This document shows, piece after piece, positions 2,973-45,994 of a stretch of DNA of 46,125 nt. Below the pieces are notes generated by a model. It saw only the letters and a program-made list of their open reading frames with translations, did no database searches and was not told where the DNA came from. The DNA lies in the NCBI RefSeq assembly GCF_965641715.1, contig NZ_OZ282456.1; one strand, 5' to 3'. This DNA is from Escherichia coli (GTDB lineage Bacteria > Pseudomonadota > Gammaproteobacteria > Enterobacterales > Enterobacteriaceae). Position 1 is the first letter of the stretch. Every line of letters begins with the position of its first letter. Made by a program: the position numbers and the translations under genes.

Positions 2973-3000
2973 AAGCCCCTGTTGCAAAGGGGCTTTTTTG
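2973..3000 (+). terminator. Rho-independent terminator
   Basis: Perfect 8-bp stem AAGCCCCT / AGGGGCTT with 7-nt loop followed by a T-run. Confidence 0.6.
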
Positions 3001-3003
3001 TGC

Positions 3004-3113
3004 TTATATAATTATAGATTTATATAAAAAGTGCTTTACAGGTGGGAAAAAATTTCCTATGGTTATACCCGAAACCGAGCGATACCCGCCCTGGTTAAAC
3101 CGGAGATAACCCG
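3004..3113 (+). promoter_or_regulatory. Copy A of a triplicated ~110-bp promoter-leader element (AT-rich box, -35 TTTACA at 3035-3040, 17-bp spacer, -10 TATGGT at 3058-3063, leader with GGAG)
   Basis: Near-identical to 12067-12175 and 16786-16895; each copy ends at an ATG. Confidence 0.55.
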
Positions 3114-3494
3114 ATGAGCATGATTAAAATCCGCAAAAACGCTTTCCTTAAAATTCAAACTATCCTGGCTGGTTCTGTTGGCGTGATTTGCCGTTCTTCC
3201 TCAAGCCGCATCGATGACTGCTACGATGATGAGTATCGTGTGTCCTCATGCGATGAGGCTTTAACCTGGCTGAAGGAGAATCAGGAACGTGCCCAGGTAT
3301 ATCTGGAAACAGAGAACGGCAATCAGATGCTGCGTATTAGCGGTCGTTATGGATTTGAAACTACATTCATGGCCTATTTTAATCAGGCTTACTTTGACAA
3401 GGAGTTGGCCTGGTACACTGATCGCATGAGCAAAAGCGAGCCAGCCCCGATTACACCGCCGAACAATAAACCATTTTTATTCCTCGTTAAGTAA
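3114..3494 (+). CDS. Hypothetical protein (driven by promoter-leader copy A)
   Basis: 126-aa ORF directly after the conserved leader and Shine-Dalgarno. Confidence 0.45.
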   Translation: MSMIKIRKNAFLKIQTILAGSVGVICRSSSSRIDDCYDDEYRVSSCDEALTWLKENQERAQVYLETENGNQMLRISGRYGFETTFMAYFNQAYFDKELAWYTDRMSKSEPAPITPPNNKPFLFLVK

Positions 3495-3502
3495 ACACAA
3501 TG

Positions 3503-3529
3503 CGCAAAGTGTCATTTTGACACTTTGCG
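3503..3529. promoter_or_regulatory. 27-bp perfect palindrome CGCAAAGTGTCA-TTT-TGACACTTTGCG; candidate operator
   Basis: 12-bp perfect inverted arms around a 3-bp centre, 29 bp upstream of an HTH regulator ATG; half-site copy AAAGTGTCATTTTGA at 12006-12020. Confidence 0.45.
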
Positions 3530-3557
3530 AGTGTTAATATTGTGCGAGGAGGGTGCT

Positions 3558-3830
3558 ATGACGGGTTATGAATTGAAATTATGGCGTCGTGGGATGAACT
3601 GGACGCAGGAGCGAGCCGCCGAAGAATTTGGGATATCGTTGGCTACATATAAGCGATATGAGAAGGGGGAGCCGCCGAGGGTCATTGAGATGGCCATTCG
3701 CGTTCTGTCGTTTGACGATATGGTGAAGGATCTTTCACACCTTGATAAAGATGCGATTCTGTTAAGGCTGCAAACCCTTGTATGGGAAAAGGTTAAAGTG
3801 TCGGCAGAATTGGAACAAGGGATCAAATGA
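3558..3830 (+). CDS. HTH (XRE-like) transcriptional regulator
   Basis: ATG at 3558 with GAGGAGGG upstream; HTH segment WTQERAAEEFGISLATYKRYEKGE; the track TTG start at 3525 lies inside the palindrome. Confidence 0.5.
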   Translation: MTGYELKLWRRGMNWTQERAAEEFGISLATYKRYEKGEPPRVIEMAIRVLSFDDMVKDLSHLDKDAILLRLQTLVWEKVKVSAELEQGIK

Positions 3831-3882
3831 TCCTTTACGGATCGTTTTATGGTGGTGTAATGTAAGCGCCAGAAAGACAAAA

Positions 3883-3905
3883 ACCGCCTTGCCGGGCGGT
3901 TTTCA
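3883..3905 (+). terminator. Rho-independent terminator (possibly bidirectional)
   Basis: ACCGCC-TTGCCG-GGCGGT hairpin followed by TTTT, preceded by an A-run. Confidence 0.45.
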
Positions 3906-4600
3906 GTCTGAAATTTAAATCTTGCTTGGTAGGCTGGATTTAAAAAGACACCTCTTGATTGGGGCGGCTTTCTTGCGTCTAAAGATAATCAAATCTTTTT
4001 GCGCCTGCAACCCCTTTTTTACTGGTGCCCATTTCAGACTCACGCTCGCGTCGTTGTCTTTGCCACTTCGTTGGGTTCGGTGTTTTTGGGCGAAGTGGCG
4101 CGCGGGTATGCGTACAAGGGGAAAGTGTGCTGACGCAAGCCAGGAACAGCGATCTAAACTAAGTCGAGTCTGAGAAAGGCAGGAGTGCGACAACTCGCCT
4201 GTGCTCTATGAGCAGAAGAAGGTATATCAGACGACCAATGGCATGATTGTGGGCCACAGGGCGCACACGGCGGCGAAGCATTGGAAACGATGTGGAGCTA
4301 TCTGGTGGCATGAGTTCCGGTACTCTATCTCGAGCTTTTTTTGATGCTTTTGAGAAGGGGCCGGAACTCCGGTAAAGGGCACCCTGTATGGGGGGAGGGG
4401 GGGTTGTGTCTGAAGGGTGGTTATCGGTTATGGTGGAATTATGATGCGTAGAAAAGCGAGTTTGCTGCAAGCTATTGGGTCCATTATTTCTTTGTTTCCG
4501 GCAGTTGATCATTTTCGTCATATGGCGACACGTTCCAGTATGGGCTTGGCGCGTGACGCTGACGCTATTCGAAAGGATTTTCAGAAAGTCTCTGGTGTTG

Positions 4601-4635
4601 ATAAGAGAGAAAAGAGTAAGGGGCCGTAGCCCCTT
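4601..4635 (-). terminator. Rho-independent terminator of the antirepressor operon
   Basis: AAGGGGC-CGTA-GCCCCTT hairpin immediately after the antirepressor stop, followed on the minus strand by a T-rich run. Confidence 0.55.
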
Positions 4636-4639
4636 GTAG

Positions 4640-5782
4640 TTATGGTCTGCTTTTCTGTGCCAGCTTATCAGCACATGTTTTTATCAGATCCTGTAGTGTC
4701 CTGGCTGGCAGGTTTGCATCCAGTACGCTGAGTATGCTGTTGTGATCTGCTTGGTCTACTACTTTGCCTGTCGGTGGTAGTAGCTTGAGCTGAGGATTCA
4801 GGTTTTCGTCAAAGCTGATAAGTGCTCTGGCGTTTCTGAGCAGATCAAGAAGTAAGGCTGATATCACATTTTCCTGAGTCATTGCTGGCAGATTTAGCGC
4901 CGCTTTGGTTTTCCCTGTTGCCTTGTCAAACTCCTTGATTAGTTCCTTCCTATAGTTCGGTTCCGTTAATAGCCGATTATGCTCTGTTGCCGCGCGGATA
5001 ATCGTTTTTTCCTGGTACAGTCGTTTAGCCAGATCGCGCTCGTACTGTGTTTTTAACACGCTGCTGATAGCGTTAAAGGCTTCAATGTAGGCTAGCTTGA
5101 TATCCTTCACGCCTGGACCGTCGATACTTTCCATGAGCAAGGTAAATCCGTCTTTTGTCATGCGATAGATTGTTATTTCGCGGTCGCTTCCTTCCAACGG
5201 TCGTTGCTCTTTAAAGAAATGACGCGCCGCAGCTGTGCGAGGAATGCGTAACGCATCGATGGCCATAACGATGGAATTGTTTGTGGTGCTGAATGCCTGG
5301 GCTACATCGGCTGAGGTTGTGAGTGGCTCGTTGTTGCACACCTTAACGTAATACATTGGTTTGGCGTTGAGCGTATCGACAACCTCACGAGCATTGTTTG
5401 GCGAGACGGTAACGGTCGCGGCCGTTTGCGCGTTCTGGTTGAAATAGCAGTCTTCCAGTTTTTCGAACACATCCCAAGCCTGATCGGTTTCGAGCATTTT
5501 GGCGTGACGGGCTGCTCCGTGTTCGGTCCAGAGAATTAGGGAGCGGGCATTTTTACCAACTAACCCGATTGTTTCAGGTCTGTTCTTGAACTCGCGTAAT
5601 TCGTTTTTTTCAATTTTAAAGTAATGCTTTCCGGCTATGAATCGCGTCGTGTTGTTCAGAAAGTTATCAGAAATGTTTTTGATTTTTGTTCCGTATAACT
5701 GCGCCAGAAGTTCAGTTGTAATAACGGGGATCTGGTTATGCAAGATAGGCTGTAGGGTGTTAACGGTCGGAAGCGTTTTCAT
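4640..5782 (-). CDS. Phage antirepressor (Ant-like)
   Basis: 380-aa ORF; N-terminal region with ILWTEHGAARHAKMLETDQAWDVFEKLEDCYF resembles antirepressor N-terminal domains and the C-terminal part resembles KilA-C-type domains, by recall. Confidence 0.55.
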   Translation of the reverse strand: MKTLPTVNTLQPILHNQIPVITTELLAQLYGTKIKNISDNFLNNTTRFIAGKHYFKIEKNELREFKNRPETIGLVGKNARSLILWTEHGAARHAKMLETDQAWDVFEKLEDCYFNQNAQTAATVTVSPNNAREVVDTLNAKPMYYVKVCNNEPLTTSADVAQAFSTTNNSIVMAIDALRIPRTAAARHFFKEQRPLEGSDREITIYRMTKDGFTLLMESIDGPGVKDIKLAYIEAFNAISSVLKTQYERDLAKRLYQEKTIIRAATEHNRLLTEPNYRKELIKEFDKATGKTKAALNLPAMTQENVISALLLDLLRNARALISFDENLNPQLKLLPPTGKVVDQADHNSILSVLDANLPARTLQDLIKTCADKLAQKSRP

Positions 5783-7261: not shown

Positions 7262-7510
7262 TTACTTCTGGTTGTATTGAGCCTTGAGTAACTCAAAAGA
7301 TTTTGTCAGCACTTCTTTCAATGACATATCCATTGAACTGGCGAACGTTTTGTACTCGCGTTTAAATTCAGGGTCGACGTTAAACGCCATTTGTGCCCCA
7401 CCTGATTTGGTTCTGGTTGGCGTTTCAGTCGGGTCGAAAACCTGCGGTTGTTCGATCGATGGCGGTACGCCTTTGCTGTTCTTCTTTGGTGGTTTTGATG
7501 GTGCGGCCAT
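7262..7510 (-). CDS. Partition protein, ParG-like ribbon-helix-helix centromere-binding protein
   Basis: 82 aa; disordered N-tail then FNVDPEFKREYKTFASSMDMSLKEVLTKSFELL, matching the RHH pattern of type Ib ParG; lies immediately downstream of parA. Confidence 0.5.
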   Translation of the reverse strand: MAAPSKPPKKNSKGVPPSIEQPQVFDPTETPTRTKSGGAQMAFNVDPEFKREYKTFASSMDMSLKEVLTKSFELLKAQYNQK

Positions 7511-7553
7511 GTGTATCCCCTCTTATATAAATCTATAAAACTATAATTATATA

Positions 7554-8207
7554 TTACGCGGCAGTAGTCAGAGCCTCAAGCTGGTTGATAATCCCCTGAA
7601 TAACGTCGTCTGCCTTTTTGCGTGGCGCAACGTATGAGCATTCAATGAGGCTTAAGCCCTTATCCTGAGCTTTGCTCAGAGCTGGCTTGTGGGGAATGTA
7701 CTTATCGACAACAAAGTATGGCGTATTAGCCAGGTACTCTTGGGCTTCAATATAGTCAGCTTCATTTTCAGCCGCGCCGGAAAACACCATGCAAATTTTC
7801 TTGATTGGCACACCCTTTTTAACGATGCCGTGAGCAGTGTTAACGGTGGTTTCCAGGTCATCGGTAGAGAATCGGGTTGGCAAAATAACCATATCCAGAA
7901 ATTCAGATAGCTTCGGTACTGATTCAGATGCGTAGGCACCGCCATCAACGATAACCAGGTCGTATACTTCTGATTCGATGATTTTCTGGACTTGTGATGG
8001 TGTGCCGCACGGCTGCGCCGCGATTGCTGGTTCGATATTGTTGGCCATTCTGCGTTGTACCCAACGCGTTACCGTTCCGTTAAGCACATCCATATCGATC
8101 AGGCATACATTCCAGCCAGCCTTTGCATAAGCAACTGCTAAAGCACGGGCAATTGTTGATTTGGTTACGCCGCCTTTTCCGTTGAAAATACCTACAGAGA
8201 TAGTCAT
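7554..8207 (-). CDS. parA: Partition ATPase ParA/ParF (Walker-type)
   Basis: Deviant Walker A GKGGVTKST near the N-terminus; ATG at 8207 has GGAG 9 nt upstream (track start 8222 lacks SD). Confidence 0.8.
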   Translation of the reverse strand: MTISVGIFNGKGGVTKSTIARALAVAYAKAGWNVCLIDMDVLNGTVTRWVQRRMANNIEPAIAAQPCGTPSQVQKIIESEVYDLVIVDGGAYASESVPKLSEFLDMVILPTRFSTDDLETTVNTAHGIVKKGVPIKKICMVFSGAAENEADYIEAQEYLANTPYFVVDKYIPHKPALSKAQDKGLSLIECSYVAPRKKADDVIQGIINQLEALTTAA

Positions 8208-8222
8208 TTGTCGAGACTCCAT

Positions 8223-8345
8223 GTGTTTGGTTATATAATTCTATAAATCTATATTTATAGAACGAGGTAAGCATAACCAACTTTTTGGCGGATGGAAAGC
8301 GTTTTATATAATTATATAAATCTATAATCATATAAGCGGGCGTTA
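8223..8345. repeat. AT-rich repeat array upstream of parA; candidate partition site/operator
   Basis: Two copies of TTATATAATT(C/A)TATAAATCTATA at 8231-8260 and 8304-8335. Confidence 0.4.
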
Positions 8346-8732: not shown

Positions 8733-8764
8733 GCGTAGCCTCTTTTATACTTTCACATGTTGTC

Positions 8765-8785
8765 AAAACCACAAATCGTGGTTTT
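8765..8785. promoter_or_regulatory. Operator-like palindrome AAAACCAC-AAATC-GTGGTTTT
   Basis: ACCAC-N5-GTGGT site in the intergenic gap downstream of the repressor gene. Confidence 0.4.
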
Positions 8786-8824: not shown

Positions 8825-9481
8825 TCATAACCAGTTGACAACACTAACTACGCGGCCCAGAACTTTATAACGCTTAAATTCCTCGTTATTCAGATGCTTA
8901 GTGTTCATTTCAGCATCCCTTTCGGTTGACAGCATAACAGCATTGTCACCCGGTATGACTCTACAGTGCCTCAAAACAACCAGGCCATTTCTGTCTTCAA
9001 GGGCATAGATCCCCTCATGAATCTCTGTATCGTCTGTATTAATCAGGACTTGGGAGCCAGGGGATATTGTTGGTGACATTAACTCATCGTTGCTCTGGAG
9101 AACTGACAGAGACGATGGGTTGATGTTCTTGCTTCGTAGAATCTCCTGTTCTATCGCCAGCACTGGCTTTTCTCCGGCGTGCGATGCTATGTCATTTTTT
9201 ATAGCTACAAGCCCAGGAATAACAGGAGCGTTAGTATTCTGGGGTGGGAACGGGTTATCTGTTAAGCACGCGATATAAGGCGCTGATGCTTTCAGGGCGT
9301 GCGCGATTTTCTTGATGGCAGGTATCGATGGTTGTCTTAATCCGGCCTCATAGTTCTGCAAGGTGCTTAAGCCTATTCCAGTGACTTGCTGGAGATCTCC
9401 GGCAGTCATGCCGGATTGTTTCCGTAGAGTCTGAATGCGCAGACCTATTTCTTTCTTGATGTTCTCGTCGTTGCTTTTCAT
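8825..9481 (-). CDS. CI-like prophage repressor (HTH XRE domain plus S24 LexA-like peptidase domain)
   Basis: N-terminal HTH (LRKQSGMTAGDLQQVTGIGLSTLQNYEAG); C-terminal domain with the layout of self-cleaving CI/LexA repressors. Confidence 0.8.
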   Translation of the reverse strand: MKSNDENIKKEIGLRIQTLRKQSGMTAGDLQQVTGIGLSTLQNYEAGLRQPSIPAIKKIAHALKASAPYIACLTDNPFPPQNTNAPVIPGLVAIKNDIASHAGEKPVLAIEQEILRSKNINPSSLSVLQSNDELMSPTISPGSQVLINTDDTEIHEGIYALEDRNGLVVLRHCRVIPGDNAVMLSTERDAEMNTKHLNNEEFKRYKVLGRVVSVVNWL

Positions 9482-9518: not shown

Positions 9519-9636
9519 ACCACATTTAGTGGTTTTCACATGGTAAGACGAGAGGTGGACCACAAATAGAAGGTTATTTTTTGTTTCGCCCATTGAAAAA
9601 CCCACGATATGTGGTTTTAATACCACATATCGTGGT
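9519..9636. promoter_or_regulatory. Divergent immunity control region with three operators: ACCACATTTAGTGGT (9519-9533), CCACGATATGTGG (9602-9614), ACCACATATCGTGGT (9622-9636)
   Basis: Three copies of the 5-bp inverted repeat ACCAC/GTGGT with 5-bp spacer, plus a half-site at 9558-9566, between divergent repressor and cro-like genes. Confidence 0.55.
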
Positions 9637-9655
9637 TTTAACTGGAGTTCGTTAA

Positions 9656-11628: not shown

Positions 11629-12006
11629 GTGAGACGCGATCTGGATAGCTTGTTTGAGCTATGGGCGCTGTGGGTGCGCAATGGCTGCAACGCCCGTAGC
11701 GGTTTCGCGTCGATGTTAGAAATGATGATGGTTACGCGTTGCCAGTTTACCGGAGGGGGCGGCGCACCAAATGACTCACTGGAAACCAGTATCGAGGGAG
11801 CTGTGACGGCCCTCACGGTAGTTGATGAGACTGCGGCGCTGGTTGTCCGAATTGAATACGGGGCGTGGGAGATTCGGGGCCTCGACATAAATGCACCGCA
11901 TATTGATAAAGCCCACGCCCTTTCTCTTAGTCTCAGACAGTATCGCCGGAAGCTGGCAAAAGCCAGGGCGTATGTTGTCGACTATTTGAAAAAGCGAAGA
12001 GAGTGA
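11629..12006 (+). CDS. Putative antitermination protein Q-like
   Basis: 125 aa; N-terminal L.ELWALW pattern and size resemble small Q antiterminators; position just upstream of a promoter-leader copy and the late genes. Confidence 0.4.
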   Translation: MRRDLDSLFELWALWVRNGCNARSGFASMLEMMMVTRCQFTGGGGAPNDSLETSIEGAVTALTVVDETAALVVRIEYGAWEIRGLDINAPHIDKAHALSLSLRQYRRKLAKARAYVVDYLKKRRE

Positions 12007-12066
12007 AAGTGTCATTTTGAGCTGTTTTGATGGTGTGTAGACATCGGGAACATCGAAAATCTATAA

Positions 12067-12175
12067 ATATATAATTATAGATTTATATAAAAAGTGCTTT
12101 ACAGGTGGGAAAAAATTTCCTAAGGTTATACCCGAAACCGAGCGATACCCGCCCTGGTTAAACCGGAGAAATCTG
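12067..12175 (+). promoter_or_regulatory. Copy B of the triplicated promoter-leader element
   Basis: About 97 percent identical to 3004-3113 and 16786-16895 over about 100 bp; one base shorter before the ATG. Confidence 0.55.
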
Positions 12176-13243
12176 ATGAATAAACAAGTAATTATTTCTG
12201 ACTGGATCAACAACCCTAACAGCCTGTTAAGCACTGATACTGGCTACCTATTACGCCATGTTAATGGTCGTATGGTCAAAAGCGATGAGCACGAAACCTT
12301 TTTCTTTGTTGAAGACGATGGGCGTATCTATGAGGATGGTTACTCTTATGAAGCCCAAACTGGTTGTATCCCTGCGGAGCTGGTGGACGTAACAGAAGAT
12401 CTGCGCAAAGCATGGCTTGAACAGCAGCAGCGCGGAGATGATTACGTAAACACCTATCAGGAACGCCAGAACGCGCGTCTTGCCCGATATATTGCTCGTG
12501 CAGAAAAAGCCAGAAAAGAAGGTGCGGTAGCGCATAAGCGAGCGCATGACCTGTTGGATGTGATCCCGTTAGGCCAGCCGATTTTAGTTGACCATTATAG
12601 CGCGAAAGGCCATCGCCGCCGTTTGTCTAAAGCTGATGCGTTATTCAGAAAAGCGTTTGTTGAATGCGAAAGTAAAGCATCACACTACGAGAGCAAAGCC
12701 GCAGGTGTTGGTCGTAATGGAATTTCGTCTGATGATCCTGATGCGCTATTTAAGTTGCTTCGTAAGCTGCAAGGCTGCATGAAGTCACACGTCAAAATGA
12801 AGGCCGCAAATAAGGCCATTCGCAAATACAAAAAAGACCAATTACAGCAGCTTTCTGCATTAATCGATCTCAGGTTTACAGAAAGCGAAGCCAAAGAGTT
12901 ACTGGCCGGAGATTTCTGTGGGCACATCGGATTCCCTTCATACGCACTGAGCAACAATAAGGCCGAAATCAAACGACTACAGAGCCGTATTAAGGAGCTT
13001 GAATCGGTCAAGTCTGTAACAGGAGCACAGCGCGAAGAATACGACGGCTTTTCTATGGAGATAGATCCAGAGGATAACCGCATCCTGTTTTATTTCCCTG
13101 GCAAACCAGAGGCAAACATTCGTTCGCTGCTTAAATCACGCGCCTTTAAGTGGAGTCCAACCCGTAATGCATGGGTTCGCAAGATTACTCCAAACGCCCT
13201 GGCTGATGCCCGATATCTGAAAGAATCGCTATTGAAAGCCTGA
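12176..13243 (+). CDS. DUF3560-family protein
   Basis: Segments GQPILVDHYSAKGHRRRLSKADA, ISSDDPDALFKL and MKAANKAIRKYKK match DUF3560 as recalled. Confidence 0.5.
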   Translation: MNKQVIISDWINNPNSLLSTDTGYLLRHVNGRMVKSDEHETFFFVEDDGRIYEDGYSYEAQTGCIPAELVDVTEDLRKAWLEQQQRGDDYVNTYQERQNARLARYIARAEKARKEGAVAHKRAHDLLDVIPLGQPILVDHYSAKGHRRRLSKADALFRKAFVECESKASHYESKAAGVGRNGISSDDPDALFKLLRKLQGCMKSHVKMKAANKAIRKYKKDQLQQLSALIDLRFTESEAKELLAGDFCGHIGFPSYALSNNKAEIKRLQSRIKELESVKSVTGAQREEYDGFSMEIDPEDNRILFYFPGKPEANIRSLLKSRAFKWSPTRNAWVRKITPNALADARYLKESLLKA

Positions 13244-13320
13244 CAGTAAGCCTACGGCGGGATATCTCCCGCCGTATATAGAATTATATATTTATATAAA
13301 TGTATAAGGACGCCTCGACA

Positions 13321-15519: not shown

Positions 15520-15643
15520 TACCGCCTGTGATTGGGTAAAGCCCATCTACCTGACTGATCACGACATCGATGTTATGGACCGACAGACAAAGAAAGATAT
15601 TCTGGCTCATAACAGGGCATGGGAAATCAACTGTCCAAAGTAA
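15434..15643 (+). CDS. o-spanin (Rz1-like lipoprotein) overlapping the i-spanin in another frame
   Basis: Lipobox-like LIASC within the signal sequence; overlapped Rz/Rz1-type arrangement. Confidence 0.5.
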   Translation: MYSRVLTIWLMTMLIASCGSRGSVPVVVDTACDWVKPIYLTDHDIDVMDRQTKKDILAHNRAWEINCPK

Positions 15644-15720
15644 TATATATTTCTATAATTATATAAATATATAGTTACAACATTCTATGCGCTTTTCTCA
15701 TGGGCGCACGCATCAACCAT

Positions 15721-16195: not shown

Positions 16196-16783
16196 ATGGA
16201 GGCAATTGCATTGTTTAATCTGATTTATGCAGATCCCCCCTGGGAATACAAAGACAAGTGTAAGGATGGGAATCGTGGAGCTGGTTTTAAGTATCCAACG
16301 ATGAAAGCTGAGGAGATTGCTCGTATTCCTGTCTGGCAGCTTGCTAATCCTGAATCGTGTTTGTTGGCCATGTGGTGGGTTCCGACTCAGCCAGAAGAAG
16401 CGTTGCTGGTGGTTAAAGCATGGGGATTCAGGCTGATGACCATGAAGGGCTTCACATGGAACAAATGTGGTAGCCGACAACCAGATAAGCTGGTGATGGG
16501 GATGGGGCATATGACTCGTGCAAACAGTGAAGATTGCTTGTTTGCGGTAAAAGGCAAACTGCCGACCCGTCTTGATGCGGGGATCATTCAGTCGTTTACA
16601 TCGCCTCGTCTGGAGCATTCTCGGAAGCCTGATGTGGTCCGTGACAAGCTGGTAAAGCTGTTAGGTGATGTTCCTCGTATTGAGCTGTTTGCTCGCGGTG
16701 ATTTACCTGATGGCTGGCATGGCTGGGGCAACCAGTGCAATGGAGGTATCCAGTTGCATGATGCTCTCTGGCAAGTGGCATAG
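16196..16783 (+). CDS. MT-A70-family DNA N6-adenine methyltransferase
   Basis: Catalytic DPPW motif near the N-terminus (IYADPPWEY), size about 195 aa. Confidence 0.75.
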   Translation: MEAIALFNLIYADPPWEYKDKCKDGNRGAGFKYPTMKAEEIARIPVWQLANPESCLLAMWWVPTQPEEALLVVKAWGFRLMTMKGFTWNKCGSRQPDKLVMGMGHMTRANSEDCLFAVKGKLPTRLDAGIIQSFTSPRLEHSRKPDVVRDKLVKLLGDVPRIELFARGDLPDGWHGWGNQCNGGIQLHDALWQVA

Positions 16784-16785
16784 AA

Positions 16786-16895
16786 TTATATAATTATAGA
16801 TTTATATAAAAAGTGCTTTACAGGTGGGAAAAAATTTCCTAAGGTTATACCCGAAACCGAGCGATACCCGCCCTGGTTAAACCGGAGATAACCCG
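16786..16895 (+). promoter_or_regulatory. Copy C of the triplicated promoter-leader element
   Basis: Near-identical to copies A and B; ends at the ATG of 16896. Confidence 0.55.
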
Positions 16896-17165
16896 ATGAA
16901 AGTACAAGACCGTGAAGTAGTAAAAAACCTCCTGCAATACCTGACCTCAAAAAACCTGACGGGCAGCGTTGAGTTCCGTGAAGCGTTAAAACATTTCAAC
17001 GTCACTACGGTTTATCGTTGGGAAAACGAACATTCTGAAAGACCGTATGTGGTGGATGTTTTTGCGCCTGATATTGAGTGCGGTTTTGAGCGTCATTCGT
17101 TCAAGGAGAAACATTCCGCTGATGTTTTTTGTGAGGTTGTATGTGCGGCAGGAGATGATGAGTGA
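16896..17165 (+). CDS. Hypothetical protein (driven by promoter-leader copy C)
   Basis: 89-aa ORF directly after the conserved leader. Confidence 0.4.
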   Translation: MKVQDREVVKNLLQYLTSKNLTGSVEFREALKHFNVTTVYRWENEHSERPYVVDVFAPDIECGFERHSFKEKHSADVFCEVVCAAGDDE

Positions 17166-33622: not shown

Positions 33623-36415
33623 ATGGCCAGCAATAAGAACTTTAAGCTGGCTTTTGAAATTGGCGGCAAAGTTGCCGCCTCTCTCCCCAAAAGTTTTACT
33701 ACAGCTAATCAGGCTGTTGCTAAATTAAATGCAGAGCTTGCTGGATTAACGAAAGAACATGGGGAAATTCAAAAGCTACAATCTGTAAAAGTAAAGGTTG
33801 GACAGACTGCCCTCGAATATCATAAAGCTGCTGCTCGCGTTGAAGAGTTACAGAAGCAAATAAAAAACACGGCCAATCCAACCAGAGCGATGCTTCGTGA
33901 CTTTGAGAAGGCAAAAACACATTCATCAAATTTACGAGCATCACTACGTTCTCAGCGTGAAGAACTGGCCGCTTTAAAGTCTGCGTATCAGGGAGCTGAT
34001 ACATCTGCCAGAGCTTTAGCCTCAAGAGAGAAAGAGCTTAAAGCAAGCATTGATCGTAATCGTGAGGCTCAGGCCCGTAGCGTTGAGCAGGTTAACCGCT
34101 ACAGAACGGCTTTGGCTTTAGCCAGAGCAAATGTTCAGCAAGTGAAAAAACAGCAGGAGGAACTTAACCGGGCATTAGAAAAACAACGTATTGATAAAAT
34201 TAACAGCTATAAAAATGCGTTGGCTGAAGCACGGAAAAATGTTCTTGCAGTAAAACGTGCTCAGGAGGAGTTAAACCGCGCGTTGGAAAGGCAGCGTGAA
34301 TTGAAGCGAGAGCATCTTGGTGAGGCAAAGAGTCAACTTGTAAGGTCAGGATTACAAACTGGTGCTGTAGCGGCTGGTGCATTTGCTGCTGCTAACAATG
34401 CAGCAAATTTCAATCGTGAAAACAAAATGATTGGTCTTACGGCAGATATGAAGCCGGAAGAAGTTCAGGCGATGGGGCAGGCGATGCTTGTTACTGGAAC
34501 GGCCACCAACCAGTTTGCATCTGATATTCAGGCCGCTCAGGGTTTTCTTGTCGCTGCTGGGCAGGATTATAAAGAGGCTCAGGCGAATCTACTAACTATT
34601 GGGCGAACAGCTACAGCTACTGGCTCTGATATCCTCGATGTCTCGAAAGCATCATTTACATTAAGTGACTCATTGAAGATTGATCCATCTCAAATGAAGT
34701 CTGCAATGGGGATTCTGGTTCAGGCAGGGAAAGAGGGAAACTTTGAATTTAAAGATATGGCCAAAAATCTTCCTGTGCTTGGTGCTCAGTTCCAGGCATT
34801 AAAAATGGGAGGTAAAGAAGCCGCCGCGACGATGGGGGCAGCTTTGCAGATAGCTCGCAAAGGTGCTGCAACTTCGGATGAGGCTGCTAATAATATGAAC
34901 AACTTTTTGGCGAAAATACTTTCCCCTGAAACACTAAAAAAAGCAAAGAAAAATTTCGGTGTAGATTTATATAAAATTGTCACAACAGCGCAGAAAAAAG
35001 GGAAGAATCCATTCGAAGCTGCAATGCATTCTGTCATGAAAATGACTAAGAACGGAGATCAGAAGTTACTTGGTGAGCTATTTGGCGATATGCAGGTTCA
35101 GAACTTTGTTCGTCCGATGATTCAAAACTGGAAGGAATACCAGAGAATCAAAGCAACATCTCTTGGGGCTGGAAGTGCTGTTATTGACCGCGATTTTGCC
35201 AACATAACGAAAGACAATGCGGAGCGATTGAAACAATTACGTATTCAGGCTAGCAATGCATCATTAAGTTTTGGTCAGGCCTTGCAACCAGCTTTGAATG
35301 CCGCGCTTAGTGTTTTGGTTCCGCTGATTACAAAAATTAGTGAATTTGTAGCTAACAACCCCAATTTTGTGTCTCAGATTGTGATGGCGGCAGGTGCGTT
35401 TCTAACCATGAAAAGTGTGGTTATAGCGTGTAGGGTAGCTATGCTGGCTTTATCTGTAGCGACAAAGCTAACACCCTTCGGGTGGATTCAGATGGCTATA
35501 TCTGCGCTGGTTGCCGCAGGAATATTGCTCTATCAGAACTGGGATAAGATCAGAGATTATGCTGTCAGAGTTTGGCCTTCTGTTAAGGAATATACAGTTA
35601 AATCATTTGAGGCTATAAAAAACTTTATCTTAAACTTTGACCTCAATGGATGGATTATATCTATGTTTGGTAAAGCATGGGATTATCTTTCCAACATAAA
35701 CTGGAGTTCGGCAGGAGTAAGAATTTACAGTACATTAATTAGTGCTTTTAAATGGATGTCTCCGCTTCCGTTCTTAATTAAAGCATTTAAACTTACAACA
35801 AATTACCTTTCTGGCATTAACTGGAGCGAAACAGGAAAGAAAATCATAGATACACTGGTATCTGTTTTTATGCGTTTTTCACCCGTTGGACTCTTTATAA
35901 GAGCATTTCAATCTGTAACAGCTTATTTGTCTGGAATAAACTGGAGTGAGTCAGGCGCAAAAATAATTGAGACGTTAATCACAGGGATAAAATCAAAAGC
36001 AAATGCTCTAATCAATGAGGTGAAAGGCGTTTTTTCTTCTGTTCGTGAGTATTTACCGTTCTCTGATGCGAAAAAAGGTCCATTCTCACAGCTAACAAAG
36101 TCAGGTGGTGCAATAATGACTACTCTGGCATCTGGTGTTAGCAGAAATAACAGCTTACAGAATGCAATCGCAACCCAGTTCGGGCAATCAAATTTATCAC
36201 CTCACGGGATCTCTGCTGCCGGGAGTTCTGGACTTCGCCAGAACGTTAACGCTGTGACTGGTGGAATAACCTATTCACCTGTAATCAATCTTCCGGCTGG
36301 TTCACCAAAGGAAACTGAGGCGGCAGCTAAAAGAGCATTAGATGCGGGATATTCTGATTTTGAGAAGAAATTGAGTGCTCATATGTTCCAACAACGGAGA
36401 TTAAGTTTTGGATGA
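33623..36415 (+). CDS. Tail tape measure protein
   Basis: 930 aa; coiled-coil N-terminal half, hydrophobic central segments, internal repeats (GINWSE x3). Confidence 0.85.
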   Translation: MASNKNFKLAFEIGGKVAASLPKSFTTANQAVAKLNAELAGLTKEHGEIQKLQSVKVKVGQTALEYHKAAARVEELQKQIKNTANPTRAMLRDFEKAKTHSSNLRASLRSQREELAALKSAYQGADTSARALASREKELKASIDRNREAQARSVEQVNRYRTALALARANVQQVKKQQEELNRALEKQRIDKINSYKNALAEARKNVLAVKRAQEELNRALERQRELKREHLGEAKSQLVRSGLQTGAVAAGAFAAANNAANFNRENKMIGLTADMKPEEVQAMGQAMLVTGTATNQFASDIQAAQGFLVAAGQDYKEAQANLLTIGRTATATGSDILDVSKASFTLSDSLKIDPSQMKSAMGILVQAGKEGNFEFKDMAKNLPVLGAQFQALKMGGKEAAATMGAALQIARKGAATSDEAANNMNNFLAKILSPETLKKAKKNFGVDLYKIVTTAQKKGKNPFEAAMHSVMKMTKNGDQKLLGELFGDMQVQNFVRPMIQNWKEYQRIKATSLGAGSAVIDRDFANITKDNAERLKQLRIQASNASLSFGQALQPALNAALSVLVPLITKISEFVANNPNFVSQIVMAAGAFLTMKSVVIACRVAMLALSVATKLTPFGWIQMAISALVAAGILLYQNWDKIRDYAVRVWPSVKEYTVKSFEAIKNFILNFDLNGWIISMFGKAWDYLSNINWSSAGVRIYSTLISAFKWMSPLPFLIKAFKLTTNYLSGINWSETGKKIIDTLVSVFMRFSPVGLFIRAFQSVTAYLSGINWSESGAKIIETLITGIKSKANALINEVKGVFSSVREYLPFSDAKKGPFSQLTKSGGAIMTTLASGVSRNNSLQNAIATQFGQSNLSPHGISAAGSSGLRQNVNAVTGGITYSPVINLPAGSPKETEAAAKRALDAGYSDFEKKLSAHMFQQRRLSFG

Positions 36416-40746: not shown

Positions 40747-43065
40747 GTGAGTAAATTATTCTTTACGATGACTGACGCCGGGCGTCAGGAGCTGGTTAAT
40801 GCCAACAAAACAGGAACAAATAAAGTTGAGATTGTTTCTGTTGGTTTAGGTAGTAGATATTATGTCACGTCAACTTCACAAACAAATATAACAAACGAAA
40901 TAAAACGACTTACCACAATAGGTGGCAAAGTTGTTTCCCCTGATACAATTCATGTAACAGCGAAGGATGATAGTAAAGATGAGTATGTTGTCCATACAAT
41001 AGGATTGTATACGAATAAGGGTACGTTGTTTGCTGTATACTCACAAGAACAAGCAATAATAAATAAAGCATCATCTACTATCGCTTTAATATCAAGTGAT
41101 ATAGCAATTAAAACTCTTGATACTAAAAATATTACATTTGGTGATATTGAGTTTATTAATCCTCCCGCGACCGAAACTGTTGTTGGGGTGGCAAGGTTTG
41201 CTAATGAACAAGAAATTGATGCAGGTACAGATGATTCCCTTGCTGTTTCAGCAAAGCGGCTTAAGCAAGCCATTGTGAAACATGAGCAATCACGTAATCA
41301 TCCCGATGCAACTTTAACCTCAAAAGGCTTTGTTCAACTTAGCAGCGCCACCAATAGCTCGTCTGAAACGCTTGCTGCGACGCCTAAGGCTGTTAAGGCA
41401 GCATATGACCTGGCTAATGGCAAATACACCGCACAGGACGCTACCACGGCGCGAAAAGGGATTGTTCAGCTCAGTAGCGCCACTAACAGTGATTCGGAAA
41501 CGCTGGCCGCAACACCAAAGGCTGTTAAGGCAGCGTATGATCTTGCGGCCGGAAAGGCTCCGTCCAATCACACGCATTCGTGGGAGCAGATAACAAATGT
41601 GCCTGTAGCTTCACTGACAGTAAGGGGAATCACTCAGCTCAGTAGTGCAACCAACAGCACGTCTGAAACACTGGCCGCGACATCGAAAGCGGTAAAGGTG
41701 GTAATGGATGAAACGAACAAGAAAGCGCCCTTAAACAGTCCTGCGCTGACCGGAACGCCAACAACACCAACTGCGCCAAAAGGTACTAACAATACTCAGA
41801 TCGCAAGCACGGCTTATGTTATGGCTGCGATCGCTGCCCTCGTGGACTCGTCGCCTGACGCACTGAATACGCTGAACGAGCTGGCTGCGGCGTTGGGCAA
41901 CGACCCGAATTTTGCGACCACCATGACTAACGCGCTTGCGGGTAAGCAACCGAAAGATGCCACCCTGACGGCGCTGGCCGGGCTTGCTACTGCGGCAGAC
42001 AAGTTTCCGTATTTTACGGGGAATGATGTCGCCAGCCTGGCAACCCTGACAAAAGTCGGGCGGGATATTCTTGCGAAATCGACCGTTGCTGCCGTTATCG
42101 AATACCTCGGTTTGCAGGAAACGGTAAATCAGGCTTCTGGCGCATTACAGAAAAACCAGAACGGTGCAGATATTCCGAATAAAGATAAATTCATACAAAA
42201 CACAGGGGCCTGTCGTGCATTTAGCGGTCAGACTGATATCGATGGTTCACAAGGTGCATGGTCGACAGTTGCATTTATCTCGTGGCTGGAGAATAACGGA
42301 GCTTTCCGACATCCATACTGGATGTGTAAAGGGTCATGGTCCTATGCCAGAAACAGGGTTATTACGGATACCGGTTGTGGAAATATCTGCCTTGCCGGAG
42401 CCGTGATTGAGGTTATGGGAACCCGCGGCGCAATGACCATACGCGTTACCACGCCGAGCACGTCCAGCGGTGGCGGAATTACTAACGCTCAATTCACTTA
42501 TATTGATCATGGTGATGCTTATGCCCCCGGCTGGCGACGAGACTACAACACGAAAAACCAGCAGCCTGCATTTGCTTTAGGGCAAACAGGAAGCAGGGTT
42601 GCAAATGATAAAGCTGTTGGCTGGAACTGGAATAGCGGTGTTTATGATGCAGATATCAGCGGTGCATCGACATTAATCCTCCACTTCAATATGAATACGG
42701 GGAGCTGCCCTGCTGTACAGTTCCGCGTGAATTACAGGAACGGCGGTATTTTTTATCGTTCAGCGCGTGATGGTTATGGATTTGAGGCTAACTGGTCAGA
42801 GTTTTACACCACGACCCGCAAACCCTCTGCGGGAGATGTTGGTGCATACACGCAGGCAGAATGTAACTCAAGGTTTATTACAGGTATTCGCCTTGGCGGT
42901 CTGTCATCTGTTCAGACATGGAATGGTCCCGGCTGGTCTGACAGGTCAGGTTATGTCGTTACGGGTTCAGTTAACGGAAACCGTGATGAATTAATTGATA
43001 CAACTCAGGCAAGGCCAATTCAGTATTGCATTAATGGGACGTGGTATAACGCGGGGAGTATTTAA
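40747..43065 (+). CDS. Tail fibre protein (constant N-terminal part plus currently expressed variable C-terminal part)
   Basis: 772 aa; three copies of the fibre repeat [19 protein letters not shown]; crossover site inside the coding sequence at 42104-42128. Confidence 0.8.
42104..42128. other. Left inversion crossover site (gix/cix-like) inside the tail-fibre gene
   Basis: ACCTCGGTTTGCAGGAAACGGTAAA; matches the reverse complement of 45158-45182 at 24 of 25 positions. Confidence 0.7.
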
Positions 43066-43067
43066 TT

Positions 43068-43601
43068 ATGATGCACTTAAAAAATATTACTGCTGGCAAC
43101 CCTAAAACAAAAGAGCAATACCAGCTAACGAAACAATTTAACATCAAATGGCTTTATACAGAGGATGGGAAAAACTGGTATGAGGAACAAAAGAACTTTC
43201 AGCCTGATACGTTGAAAATGGTCTATGACCACAACAACGTTATTATTTGTATTGAAAAGGATGTTTCAGCAATTAATCCAGAAGGCGCAAGCGTCGTTGA
43301 GGTTCCTGATATTACAGCAAATCGCCGGGCTGATATTTCTGGTAAATGGATGTTCAAAGATGGCGTAGTGGTAAAGCGAACTTATACCGAGGAAGAGCAG
43401 AGGCAGCAGGCGGAAAATGAAAAGCAAAGCCTGCTACAGCTCGTTAGGGATAAAACCCAGCTATGGGACTCACAGCTACGGCTGGGCATCATTTCCGACG
43501 AGAATAAACAAAAATTAACCGAGTGGATGCTCTATGCGCAGAAAGTCGAATCTACAGACACCTCCAGCCTGCCAGTAACATTTCCCGAACAACCTGAATG
43601 A
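43068..43601 (+). CDS. Tail fibre assembly protein (current orientation)
   Basis: 177 aa; paralogous to the minus-strand 43630-44160 product (shared [13 protein letters not shown] and [12 protein letters not shown] segments). Confidence 0.7.
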
Positions 43602-43629: not shown

Positions 43630-44160
43630 TTATTCAGGCTTTTGTGGCCATTCAGGATTTGCCGTATCCACACGGCTGACCAGAACACTGTAGCGTTCCC
43701 ATGCTTCCAGTCGTGTGCGTTCCTCGTCTGTTGCCATATTCAGCCTGACAGCGCGTTCCAGCGGCTGGATGACTGATTCAGCTTCGGAAAGCAATGCGGC
43801 CTTTTGTGATTCGCCTTGTTGTTGCTGTTCGTCTGCCGTATAAATCCGTTTAACTACAGCTCCATCCTTAAACATCCACTTTCCTGAATCATCAGCGCGG
43901 CGGTTGGCTGTAATATCAGGAACCTCAACGACGCTAAAACCTTCAGGGTTAAGCGTGGAGGCATCTTTAGTGATGGCGACAATAATATTATTTGCATCGT
44001 AAACAATCTTTATTGTGTCTGGCTGAAAGTTTTTCACTTCCTCATACCAGTTTTTATCGTCTTCGGACCATAACCAGATAACATCAAAATTCTTTGTTAG
44101 CTGATATTGTTCTTTCGTTTTAGGATTTCCAGACTTAATATTTTTTAAATGCTGCATCAT
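43630..44160 (-). CDS. Tail fibre assembly protein (alternative orientation)
   Basis: 176 aa; paralogue of 43068-43601 on the opposite strand. Confidence 0.7.
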
Positions 44161-45156
44161 TTACACCTGTGCGACGTTATACCATGTGCCATTGATGTAT
44201 TTTTGTATTGGCCTGAAGATGGCTTCATCATCGCCATCTACTTCACCAATGATTCTTAATCCGGTAATTGCGTGTCCGGCTTTTTCATAACGACCACCAC
44301 GCGCCATCAATTGAACAACTCGCGTACCCAGGCGAACATCTCTCACATATCTGGAATCAAAATTGCCATAGTTGCCAGGAATAACTTGCGAGCCACAAAG
44401 CCAGTTACCGTTATTGTCCATGTACGCCTGACCATCGGTGCCATTGGCTGTCCTTGAGTTATTAATCATGTAAAAACCAAACTGGTAGTTACCAAGTCCA
44501 CCGACAAAAAATTTGCGTTCTGCATGGTCTTGTCTTAACAAAGCCTGCGCAGAACTTGTTGATACTGCGTTTCTACCAAAAATGACATTCTGGTTTCGCA
44601 TATCAATCCATGAGGTTGAGCCACTATTAATAGCAAACCTGTTTGCATACACCCAGGCGTTAGTTGTTATATCTCCTGTAACATCCAGACCATGCCCCAT
44701 AGTTATGCGGCCAGTTCTGAGATTAAGCGTAAAGGGACGTAGTGGCCCTATATTACCATTTTCCCCCTCATTCTCTCGTGTAGGGATGATATGCAGGCAT
44801 TCTTCAGAACGGCGAAAAATGGCACCAAAAGATGAATTAAATATCCTCAGTGCATTGACTGTCGATATTTTTACTTCACTGCTGAAAAGAGCTTTAACAA
44901 GAACATACAAAGCATCCCATTTAAGATTCATCAGGTCTTTTGTTGTGGTGCTTTGTTTGCTTCTCCATTTGAAATATTCATTGCCGTTGTCGCCTGTCTC
45001 AAACCACATGTATGAATCAGTGTCACCATCGGCATCATTTTTAAATCCAATCTTCGCCCAGTCAGTATTTCGAATCCAGGCAAGGATTGAGTCATTTTCA
45101 AAAGTAAGCCCACCGGACAAAGTATCGCCATTTTTTTGCACGGCGTTACCAGCCCT
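44161..45156 (-). CDS. Alternative tail-fibre C-terminal segment (silent; no own start, would fuse to the constant part after inversion)
   Basis: Open minus-strand frame continues to the crossover site and encodes LGLQETVN there, identical to the plus-strand fibre at the left site. Confidence 0.65.
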   Translation of the reverse strand, partial: RAGNAVQKNGDTLSGGLTFENDSILAWIRNTDWAKIGFKNDADGDTDSYMWFETGDNGNEYFKWRSKQSTTTKDLMNLKWDALYVLVKALFSSEVKISTVNALRIFNSSFGAIFRRSEECLHIIPTRENEGENGNIGPLRPFTLNLRTGRITMGHGLDVTGDITTNAWVYANRFAINSGSTSWIDMRNQNVIFGRNAVSTSSAQALLRQDHAERKFFVGGLGNYQFGFYMINNSRTANGTDGQAYMDNNGNWLCGSQVIPGNYGNFDSRYVRDVRLGTRVVQLMARGGRYEKAGHAITGLRIIGEVDGDDEAIFRPIQKYINGTWYNVAQV

Positions 45157-45810: not shown

Positions 45811-45941
45811 CTGGAGTTAGGCCAGTAGTATGATGCTCGCAAAACGAGATCCAATTTAGATCCTTTTACTGGTGGATTATCGTTCGATCAGTGAGAGACT
45901 TCGTGCATGACCGAAAGTGTTGTGGTAGAGTTCTCTTAAAA

Positions 45942-45956
45942 CCACGTAACGTGGTT
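45942..45956. promoter_or_regulatory. Operator-like inverted repeat ACCAC-GTAAC-GTGGT
   Basis: Same architecture as the immunity-region operators; between the invertase and the window end. Confidence 0.35.
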
Positions 45957-45994
45957 ATGATTGTGGGTGTCTGGTTGGAAAGTGACCAGATATG

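Follow-up and report, generated by a model that had tools for sequence, protein, structure and literature searches.

A putative self-repression operator of a widespread helix-turn-helix protein family on an Escherichia coli phage-plasmid, and its partial copy in the remnant of a deleted gene

A small XRE-family repressor that acts on a palindrome placed over its own promoter is a textbook arrangement and, in itself, matters little. The closest described systems are RstR of CTXphi, P2 C and the Cro-type proteins of 434 and lambda, i.e., short HTH_3 proteins with a palindromic operator over their own promoters; the controller (C) proteins, such as C.Esp1396I and C.AhdI, which are XRE dimers of ~80-90 amino acids with a palindrome upstream of their own genes at the -35 region; the Aca1 and Aca2 proteins, which bind inverted repeats and repress, with operators located within the promoter that precedes the acr gene; and the HipB, HigA and MqsA (C-terminal domain) antitoxins, which as type II antitoxins autoregulate via palindromes. 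In this work, we analysed a 46,125-bp stretch of Escherichia coli DNA (the window), in which a gene for a 90-aa helix-turn-helix (HTH) protein is preceded by an inverted repeat at positions 3503-3529. By analogy with the systems listed above, the protein may work like a small autorepressor of the Cro, C-protein or Aca type. The account that we favour, and hold to be probably correct, is that the repeat is the cognate self-repression operator of this protein, while a partial copy of it at 12006-12020 is a relic that has no tie to three repeated promoters of the same element. The account provides a candidate consensus operator (AAAGTG-N9-CACTTT and its variants) and a predicted promoter layout for an uncharacterised HTH family that is found on ~3,800 enterobacterial plasmid records, in some of which the gene heads operons with nuclease genes.

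Across its full length, the window has the same sequence as the complete E. coli plasmid CP055628.1, and its first 17 kb share ~98% identity with Yersinia phages vB_YpM_39/41/44. Its gene content marks the 46-kb element as a phage-plasmid: genes for tail, terminase and lysis functions occur alongside a ParA-like gene, and a repA of the IncFII type is present in relatives. More than 60 close relatives are found in Escherichia, and more distant ones, with HTH proteins 69-74% identical to the one described here, in Salmonella, Klebsiella aerogenes, Yokenella and Citrobacter. A literature search for the names of the Yersinia phages, the phage-plasmid type and the pCTX-M3 regulators gave nothing relevant. 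The pSLy3 group was considered as the family of the element and the label was dropped, since the published placement of pSLy3 is in the SSU5 supercommunity and nothing ties the element to pSLy3. Besides the 90-aa protein, at least three further HTH proteins are encoded on the element. They include the HTH protein (2659-2958) of a HigB2/HigA-like pair (2306-2958), which forms an operon separate from the 90-aa HTH gene, and a CI-like repressor (8825-9481), which has repeats of its own, of the ACCAC-N6-GTGGT type, at 8758, 9598-9639 and 45931. The CI-like repressor and the Ant/Rha genes are sited away from the 90-aa HTH gene.

The gene of the 90-aa XRE-family protein occupies positions 3558-3830 of the plus strand, as judged by its translation, Pfam and PHROG matches and predicted fold. 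A Shine-Dalgarno-like GAGGAGGG, read from the sequence at 3546-3553 of the same strand, ends 4 nt before the ATG at 3558. An in-frame TTG at 3525 was rejected as the start codon, as the N-terminus MTG[FY]EL[KR]LWR is invariant across the family. The preliminary description had called the gene downstream of the repeat an HTH regulator, and the protein does match the HTH_3 (PF01381, i-Evalue 8.9e-7, residues 6-40) and HTH_31 (5.4e-6) profiles of Pfam, while AlphaFold2 predicts for it a five-helix lambda-repressor-like fold (mean pLDDT 83.5; helices 3-12, 17-24, 28-36, 41-59 and 64-87). This fold is generic: the best Foldseek matches in the PDB are HipB, SinR, Aca1/2, P2 C and C.Esp1396I, all with E >= 0.05. 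The best matches of a PDB sequence search are MqsA and HipB, at E = 0.06-0.2, and the best NCBIfam match is the RstR family NF041951 (E = 2.6e-8), at 34.1 bits against a cut-off of 80 and over the N-terminal 45 residues only. Searches with PADLOC, NCBIfam, Pfam (on both neighbouring ORFs), PDB sequences and Foldseek against the PDB gave nothing specific beyond a generic XRE HTH. The protein also matches the full-length profile of phrog_6962 (function unknown; E = 1.5e-45), in which residues 1-78 align with profile positions 1-73 of 73. The protein is best filed as a member of an uncharacterised and widespread family, made up of PHROG 6962 and its plasmid homologues, for which comparison of sequences now defines a putative operator consensus.

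None of the described systems accommodates the protein completely. CTXphi rstR is matched by tblastn at 31% identity and P2 C is among the fold matches, but the protein is not a member of the RstR family by the curated cut-off (34 bits vs 80); furthermore, unlike the genes of RstR, P2 C and the Cro-type proteins, its gene is not located at an immunity switch, has one operator only and is not accompanied by a divergent lytic promoter. The likeness to C proteins extends to C.Esp1396I being a fold match and to homologues on pOXA-48-like IncL/M plasmids and at a locus designated L031, where the HTH gene is co-transcribed with, and precedes, a Mrr_cat "restriction endonuclease" gene. In the window, however, the HTH gene has no adjacent nuclease or methyltransferase gene and is directly followed by a likely terminator; its product shows no sequence-level match to the C-protein family, and we know of no described C-box that is related to the repeat at 3503-3529. 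As for Aca proteins, which are also among the fold matches, the likeness is in a conserved small HTH gene that lies downstream of a variable small gene in a mobile element. Here, the variable gene is a 126-aa ORF, orf126 (3114-3494, plus strand; PHROG 8090, function unknown), which is driven by promoter copy A (3004-3117) and for which Pfam, NCBIfam and PADLOC gave no match. In contrast to Aca operators, the proposed operator is located downstream of orf126, in front of the HTH gene, and promoter copy A contains no AAAGTG-N9-CACTTT site; nor does the 90-aa protein belong to an Aca family at the sequence level. Finally, the antitoxins HipB, HigA and MqsA give the best PDB sequence matches mentioned above and weak Pfam and NCBIfam matches, and palindrome-mediated autoregulation is what is proposed for the 90-aa protein. 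All of these matches, however, are below family cut-offs, neither orf126 nor the 171-aa ORF on the other side of the HTH gene matches a toxin family, and the upstream gene is not conserved.

The repeat itself has the form CGCAAAGTGTCA-TTT-TGACACTTTGCG, with no strand assigned. It had been described as a perfect palindrome of 27 bp located 29 bp before the ATG of the regulator. Its 12-nt arms are indeed fully complementary; the central TTT is not self-complementary, however, and the element is more accurately an inverted repeat with 12-bp arms and an asymmetric 3-bp spacer. It does lie upstream of the gene, at a distance of 28 nt rather than 29, the ATG being at 3558 and not at 3559. The part that is conserved, i.e., the core AAAGTGTCA-N3-TGACACTTT, corresponds to 3506-3526, and the pattern AAAGTG-N9-CACTTT has a single full match within the 46-kb window, which is the repeat at 3503-3529. 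A search for further operators, which covered the window and the complete Salmonella relative, found none besides the site upstream of the HTH gene; matches to the operator pattern with 4-6 mismatches are at or below the shuffle expectation.

A predicted extended -10 element, TG-T-TAATAT (TGTTAATAT; 3532-3540, plus strand), starts 5 nt past the operator core, and its function as a promoter is proposed from the sequence. The spacing is a conserved property: TGnTA is invariant and located exactly 5 nt after CACTTT in 9/9 aligned phage-plasmid sequences, which represent five lineages. No canonical -35 partner for this -10 element was found by a simple -35/-10 scan. The TTGACA at 3517-3522, in the right arm of the repeat, was considered for this role and rejected, as it is only 12 bp from the TAATAT. 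Transcription from the predicted start would leave a leader of only 11-14 nt. In some Escherichia relatives, an insertion of ~580 bp parts the operator and the -10 element from the HTH start codon, so tight coupling between them is not obligatory. Downstream of the gene, a G+C-rich hairpin flanked by runs of A and T (AAAAACCGCCTTGCCGGGCGGTTTTCA; 3871-3905, no strand assigned, with a terminator-like prediction on the minus strand at 3905-3878) is likely a bidirectional terminator that ends the HTH transcript. It is nearly identical in Salmonella, and beyond it lies the 171-aa ORF, which is convergent and has no Pfam match.

With this layout, the proposed operator would span approximately -44 to -18 of an extended -10 promoter, that is, its -35/spacer region. 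A dimer of the HTH protein would bind the two AAAGTGTCA half-sites, the centres of which are about one helical turn apart, and occupancy of the operator would block RNA polymerase, so that the HTH gene would repress itself. The symmetric site covaries with the HTH gene family across more than 15 loci, and we infer that a dimer of the 90-aa protein would recognise this two-fold symmetric site in a sequence-specific manner.

The pairing of repeat and gene is preserved well beyond the Escherichia elements. In the phage-plasmid orthologues, the core GTGTCA-N3-TGACAC is kept while its flanks diverge, the operator sequences being GTGGAAAGTGTCAATTTGATACTTTCCAC in Salmonella, ATGCTCAAAGTGTCAAATTGACACTTTGAGCAT in K. 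aerogenes, TGCGCAAAGTGTCAATGTGACACTTTACGCA in Yokenella and ATGGTGTCAATGTGACACTTT in Citrobacter. In E. coli, Salmonella and K. aerogenes, the module is preceded by orf126; in Yokenella, by a 146-aa gene together with a HicB-like gene; and in Citrobacter, which has no orf126, only by the HigBA-like pair. Since the upstream gene varies while the operator and the HTH gene persist, the latter two behave as one unit. By tblastn, homologues of the 90-aa protein were detected in 3,782 plasmid records, 3,303 of which were typed as conjugative, and which include IncI, pOXA-48-like IncL/M and IncFII plasmids. In the contexts sampled, homologues with 32-58% identity that reside in unrelated surroundings have the same type of site upstream. 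In Providencia, the palindrome is TTAAAAGTGACAAAATGACACTTTTAA and lies in a promoter region divergent from a helicase gene, which is not a terminator position; in Serratia, it is AATGTGACAATATGGCACATT; in IncI plasmids, there are two copies of AAAGTGAA-N5-TTCACTTT; in IncFII and pOXA-48-like IncL/M plasmids, AAAATGTTCAAATATGAACATTTT stands at the head of the operon to which the HTH gene belongs; at L031, ATGGTGACAAATTGGCACTTT is found ahead of the operon; and metagenome loci have two tandem copies of the palindrome. Within 150 bp upstream of the gene, 11/16 loci have a palindrome in which 10 or more arm positions match, compared to 3.6% of random 150-bp windows. Altogether, the palindrome and the HTH gene were found together in 15 or more independent genomic contexts, in which the core is conserved and the spacing to the extended -10 element is kept. 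The earlier suggestion of a regulatory site that belongs with the neighbouring HTH gene is thus borne out, as far as comparison of sequences can tell. Presence in tandem copies, occurrence where there is no co-directional upstream gene and conservation at the level of sequence, beyond that of pairing, are the behaviour of a protein-binding site, to judge by these alignments.

One may ask whether the protein that binds is the product of the adjacent gene. The element encodes the other HTH proteins listed above, and the assignment of the operator to the 90-aa protein is a prediction from sequence, so that the repeat could instead be bound by another protein of the element or of the host, for example, the CI-like repressor or the HigA-like HTH protein, its proximity to the HTH gene then being incidental. 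We consider this very improbable. Plasmids that have a member of the 90-aa HTH family, but nothing else of the phage-plasmid, have the palindrome too, and the CI-like repressor has repeats of a different kind. In addition, the inner half-site shifts where the presumed recognition helix of the homologue shifts, to AAAGTGAA-N5-TTCACTTT in IncI, to AAATGTTCA-N4-TGAACATTT in IncFII and to TGCGCAG-type sequences in others.

The same palindrome is found outside the family. When 100,044 species genomes were scanned for exact occurrences of AAAGTGTCANNNTGACACTTT, 47 loci were obtained, nearly all of them in Firmicutes or Bacteroidota, that adjoin type I R-M, GIY-YIG or small winged-helix genes. No homologue of the 90-aa protein adjoins any of the 47 loci (hmmsearch with the family profile, E <= 10), and the idea that they represent the same system was rejected in favour of an unrelated use of the same palindrome. 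The scan returned no enterobacterial locus, which may reflect the lack of these plasmids from species representatives. A scan of IMG/VR with the family alignment yielded 13 loci, mostly near-identical.

The position of the repeat also invites an interpretation at the level of RNA. It begins 9 nt after the stop codon of orf126, and the HTH gene is not separated from promoter copy A and orf126 by any canonical terminator. This leaves room for read-through from copy A, and the HTH gene, being downstream of this copy, may also be transcribed in this way; such a relationship with one of the repeated promoters differs from the link first proposed. The repeat could then function mainly or additionally as an RNA hairpin, i.e., as a terminator, a 3'-end stabiliser or a processing site of the transcript initiated at promoter A and covering orf126. 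The predicted RNA fold that contains the 12-bp stem has an energy of -24.3 kcal/mol (z = -3.5 vs shuffles), and variants of the repeat within Escherichia are transitions compatible with G·U pairing. The outermost three pairs covary between genera (CGC/GCG, TGG/CCA and CTC/GAG), changing on both sides with pairing kept, and the resulting covariation score is reached by 4/500 shuffles. Extended G+C-rich arms are found where a co-directional gene is located upstream (E. coli, Salmonella, K. aerogenes and Yokenella) and are lost in Citrobacter, where orf126 is missing. On the plus strand, however, the hairpin is followed by AGUGUUAAUAUUG, a tail without a U-tract, as would not be expected of an intrinsic terminator, and the terminator-like prediction at 3503-3529 is for the minus strand only, on which there is no transcription toward it. 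Moreover, the core is conserved in sequence and not only in pairing, including the case with no upstream co-directional gene (Providencia) and tandem copies, and symmetric changes like those of the outer pairs could also be generated by template-switch mutation in quasi-palindromes. Overall, we regard the reading of the repeat as mainly or additionally an RNA element as unlikely.

It should be mentioned that the outer pairs covary even though the helix SLATYKRYEKG, the presumed recognition helix, is identical in the proteins concerned. The covariation of these pairs goes beyond the need of a plain protein-binding site and hints at an additional hairpin role. It could be due to contacts made by the variable helix 2, to mutational homogenisation of quasi-palindromes, or to an RNA hairpin on the promoter-A transcript. 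A further possibility, though an unlikely one, is that the repeat is dual-purpose, operator and RNA hairpin at once, with the covarying outer arms coupling read-through from promoter A to occupancy by the HTH protein. With the repeat being an operator in the first place, as we prefer, read-through from promoter copy A may also be limited by the bound protein, by the hairpin or by both.

The window contains AAAGTGTCATTTTGA of the repeat in two exact copies, one at 3506-3520 and the other at 12006-12020. The first base of the second copy is also the final one of the TGA stop codon (12004-12006) of the ORF at 11629-12006, and the copy lies 46 bp upstream of promoter copy B; the preliminary description was right in reporting a half-site copy there, between the stop of what it called a Q-like gene and this promoter. 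It went on to propose a connection, through this copy, between the regulator and the regulon of the triplicated promoter, and this part is not supported: as set out below, the copy belongs to a gene remnant, contains a single half-site, has no counterpart near promoter B in relatives and is absent from the other promoter copies.

A random match, which had been named as the alternative, does not explain the copy either. Under a first-order Markov model, 0.003 exact 15-mer matches of the repeat are expected elsewhere in the window, which contains ~9 unrelated exact 15-mer pairs. Instead, descent from a coding sequence, rather than selection for binding, explains the identity. An intact gene for a protein of 145-152 aa (no Pfam family) is present in Salmonella, K. 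aerogenes, Yokenella and Citrobacter, as well as on several metagenome contigs, where it overlaps the stop codon of the "Q-like" ORF and fills the space before promoter B. The Escherichia clade has no such gene. What is left of it is the segment 12004-12027 of the plus strand (TGAAAGTGTCATTTTGAGCTGTTT), which contains AAAGTGTCATTTTGA and which is identical at 21/24 aligned positions to a stretch from within the Salmonella coding sequence (TGAAAGGCTCATTTTGAGCTATTT). The Smith-Waterman score of this alignment is 18, compared to 9.0 +/- 1.2 for shuffles (maximum 14; 0/500 reach 18), and the deletion junction is exactly at the stop codon (TGA/AAG). When the relic junction was searched for with two positions left free, the TG form of the relic and the GC form of the intact gene, both already known, were the only ones obtained. 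The segment retained in the remnant, which lies outside the regulatory system proposed here, encodes a conserved peptide, L-E-[RKSQ]-[LVC]-I-L-S-Y-L, the aligned segment of Salmonella reading …E-R-L-I-L-S-Y-L….

The intact genes also account for the exactness of the match. The equivalents of the 15-mer in them are AAAGGCTCATTTTGA (13/15), AAAAGGTCATTTTGA (13/15) and AAAGTCTCATTTTGA (14/15, encoding E-S-L). In the relic, the codons are GAA AGT GTC (E-S-V), of which the Ser codon AGT is found in one intact gene and the Val codon GTC in two others. As the codons of the relic are thus seen in intact genes, the 15/15 identity is ordinary coding variation frozen in the remnant, and no selection for binding is needed.

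It is conceivable, nonetheless, that the 15-mer at 12006-12020 is a functional secondary operator or half-operator that was co-opted from the gene remnant and modulates promoter copy B. In addition to the exactness of the match, the site ranks first among the secondary matches to the full operator in the window, agreeing with it at 14/18 specified positions, and it is invariant in four Escherichia-clade sequences while intergenic bases nearby, ~10 bp downstream, vary. All four mismatches, however, fall in the right half, which retains 5/9 positions; the invariant Escherichia block runs past the match (…GAGCTGTTTTG), so that conservation is not delimited by the site; and the 13-14/15 agreement in intact genes occurs in genera whose operators have a different spacer. 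The centre of the site is ~120 bp upstream of the predicted start of promoter B and upstream of AT-rich repeats. No operator-like site was found beside promoter B in Salmonella, K. aerogenes and Citrobacter, though the operator and the three promoter copies are kept there, and in the window there is no copy of the site at promoter copies A and C. RNA structure or a terminator is not predicted at the second site either (z = -1.2; no terminator-like site). We therefore consider it quite improbable that the site is a secondary operator of promoter B. A related version, in which the remnant was co-opted as a weak landing pad with a single half-site, ~120 bp upstream of promoter B, is improbable as well; if true, it would mean that a regulatory site arose from pseudogene debris and that the Escherichia lineage acquired a control input lacking in its Salmonella, Klebsiella and Citrobacter relatives. 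Functional binding at the second site in any form is hardly to be expected, and 12006-12020 is, to judge from these comparisons, most probably not a functional binding site.

Two further elements of the earlier proposal concern the surroundings of the second site. The triplication of the promoter is real: three promoter/leader copies of ~114 bp each are located at 3004-3117, 12067-12180 and 16786-16899. For copy B (12067-12180, plus strand), which is context only, the predicted -35 and -10 elements are TTTACA (12098-12103) and TAAGGT (12121-12126), and nothing points to an action of the HTH protein at this copy, the orthologous promoters of relatives having no operator-like site. The name "Q-like" for the ORF at 11629-12006, on the other hand, finds no support, as the ORF belongs to PHROG 5285 (function unknown), no Q-family protein was recognised in it, and its only NCBIfam match is to PA0613_fam, at 21 bits vs a cut-off of 100. 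The tie between the regulator and the promoters is to be dropped, and control of the promoter family is to be sought elsewhere, for example, in flanking AT-rich repeats. Such repeats, of the TATAAATCTATAA type, flank all three promoter copies.

An AT-rich repeat of ~16-24 bp (TTATATAAATCTATAA / TATAATTATAGATTTATATAA) is present in at least ten copies in the window (2996-3027, 7523-7554, 8231-8262, 8304-8335, 12051-12090, 13276-13307, 15643-15682, 16778-16809, and 34962-34976), and these copies are apparently intergenic, lying outside likely genes. The repeat is located immediately 5' of each of the three promoter/leader copies (A, B, and C), it also occurs in the region upstream of the parA-like gene, and in the relatives it is kept upstream of the promoter copies. 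The preliminary description had linked this triplicated promoter regulon to the XRE-family HTH gene (3558-3830) through a half-site copy of the probable operator of the latter, an inverted repeat with the core AAAGTG-N9-CACTTT (3503-3529). As the shared control element of the regulon, the AT-rich repeat is a better candidate than the HTH operator. It may be recognized by the small protein encoded beside parA (7262-7510) or by another regulator. A likeness to the operator half-site AAAGTG does exist in all three promoter copies, where AAAAAGTG directly precedes the -35 element TTTACA (3029-3040, 12092-12103, and 16811-16822). We treat this likeness as a coincidence and not as an HTH half-site, because no symmetric partner for AAAAAGTG was found in the promoter copies and because some relatives carry AAAAAGCG in its place.

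The gene preceding promoter copy B (11629-12006) had been labeled "Q-like", a label without support: its product shows no recognizable relationship to lambda Q and belongs to PHROG 5285 (function unknown), with a weak sub-threshold match to the PA0613 family (21 bits at a cut-off of 100). In four other genera, a conserved gene of 145-152 aa, also of unknown function, overlaps the stop codon of the preceding gene; it is intact in the phage-plasmids from Salmonella, K. aerogenes, Yokenella, and Citrobacter (L009, 26287-26730; L015, 7473-7913; L016, 18310-18768; and L017, 17862-18320). The gene has been lost from the Escherichia lineage, the remnant there being ~60 nt long (12007-12066 in the window).

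The surroundings of the HTH gene differ among the relatives in several ways. In some Escherichia relatives, i.e., the loci L018 (positions 1-600, IMGVR_UViG_3300029841_000009) and L024 and the plasmid matches H44 and H48-H51, an insertion of ~580 bp separates the operator/-10 (…CACTTTGCGAGTGTTAATAT|) from the HTH start codon. The inserted DNA carries a minus-strand ORF of 141 aa and takes the place of the ribosome-binding region, and the HTH gene beyond it is otherwise 97-100% identical. E. coli and Salmonella are near-identical over the final ~60 nt of the HTH gene and the terminator that follows it (3770-3905 versus 2290-2430 of the Salmonella sequence L002), whereas identity is ~72% over the remainder of the gene and the upstream region, a pattern that looks like a recombination boundary within the HTH gene. 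Further downstream, the interval that runs from the HTH gene to the Ant/Rha-type gene (3900-4700 in the window, with equivalents in L009, L015, L016, and L017) looks like a variable-cargo hotspot. Its accessory ORFs differ from one relative to another: 171 aa on the minus strand in the window, 211-218 aa on the plus strand in the Salmonella, K. aerogenes, and Yokenella equivalents, and 54 aa in the Citrobacter one; no Pfam family was found for these ORFs in the window or in the relatives.

The operator-like palindrome (C)CAAAGTGTCA-N3-TGACACTTTG(G) was found in 47 genomes (L034-L080, a scan of genome contigs), chiefly of Lachnospiraceae and other Clostridia, where it is often adjoined by type I restriction-modification or GIY-YIG genes. 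No homologue of the 90-aa HTH family adjoins it in any of the 47, and it is a conserved motif not related to the HTH system. Within the window, a second palindrome family, of the AAACCACNNNTCGTGGTTTT type and different from the HTH operator, flanks the CI-like repressor gene (8825-9481) at 8758-8785 and 9598-9639, with a third copy near the window end (45931-45958). These palindromes are probably the operators of the CI-like repressor.

In the tail-fibre region, two inverted repeats of 361 nt (43064-43424 and 43801-44161) are 70% complementary and separated by 376 nt, and in the Salmonella and Citrobacter relatives a recombinase/resolvase gene lies directly 3' of the tail-fibre assembly genes. 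This region looks like an invertible host-range segment.
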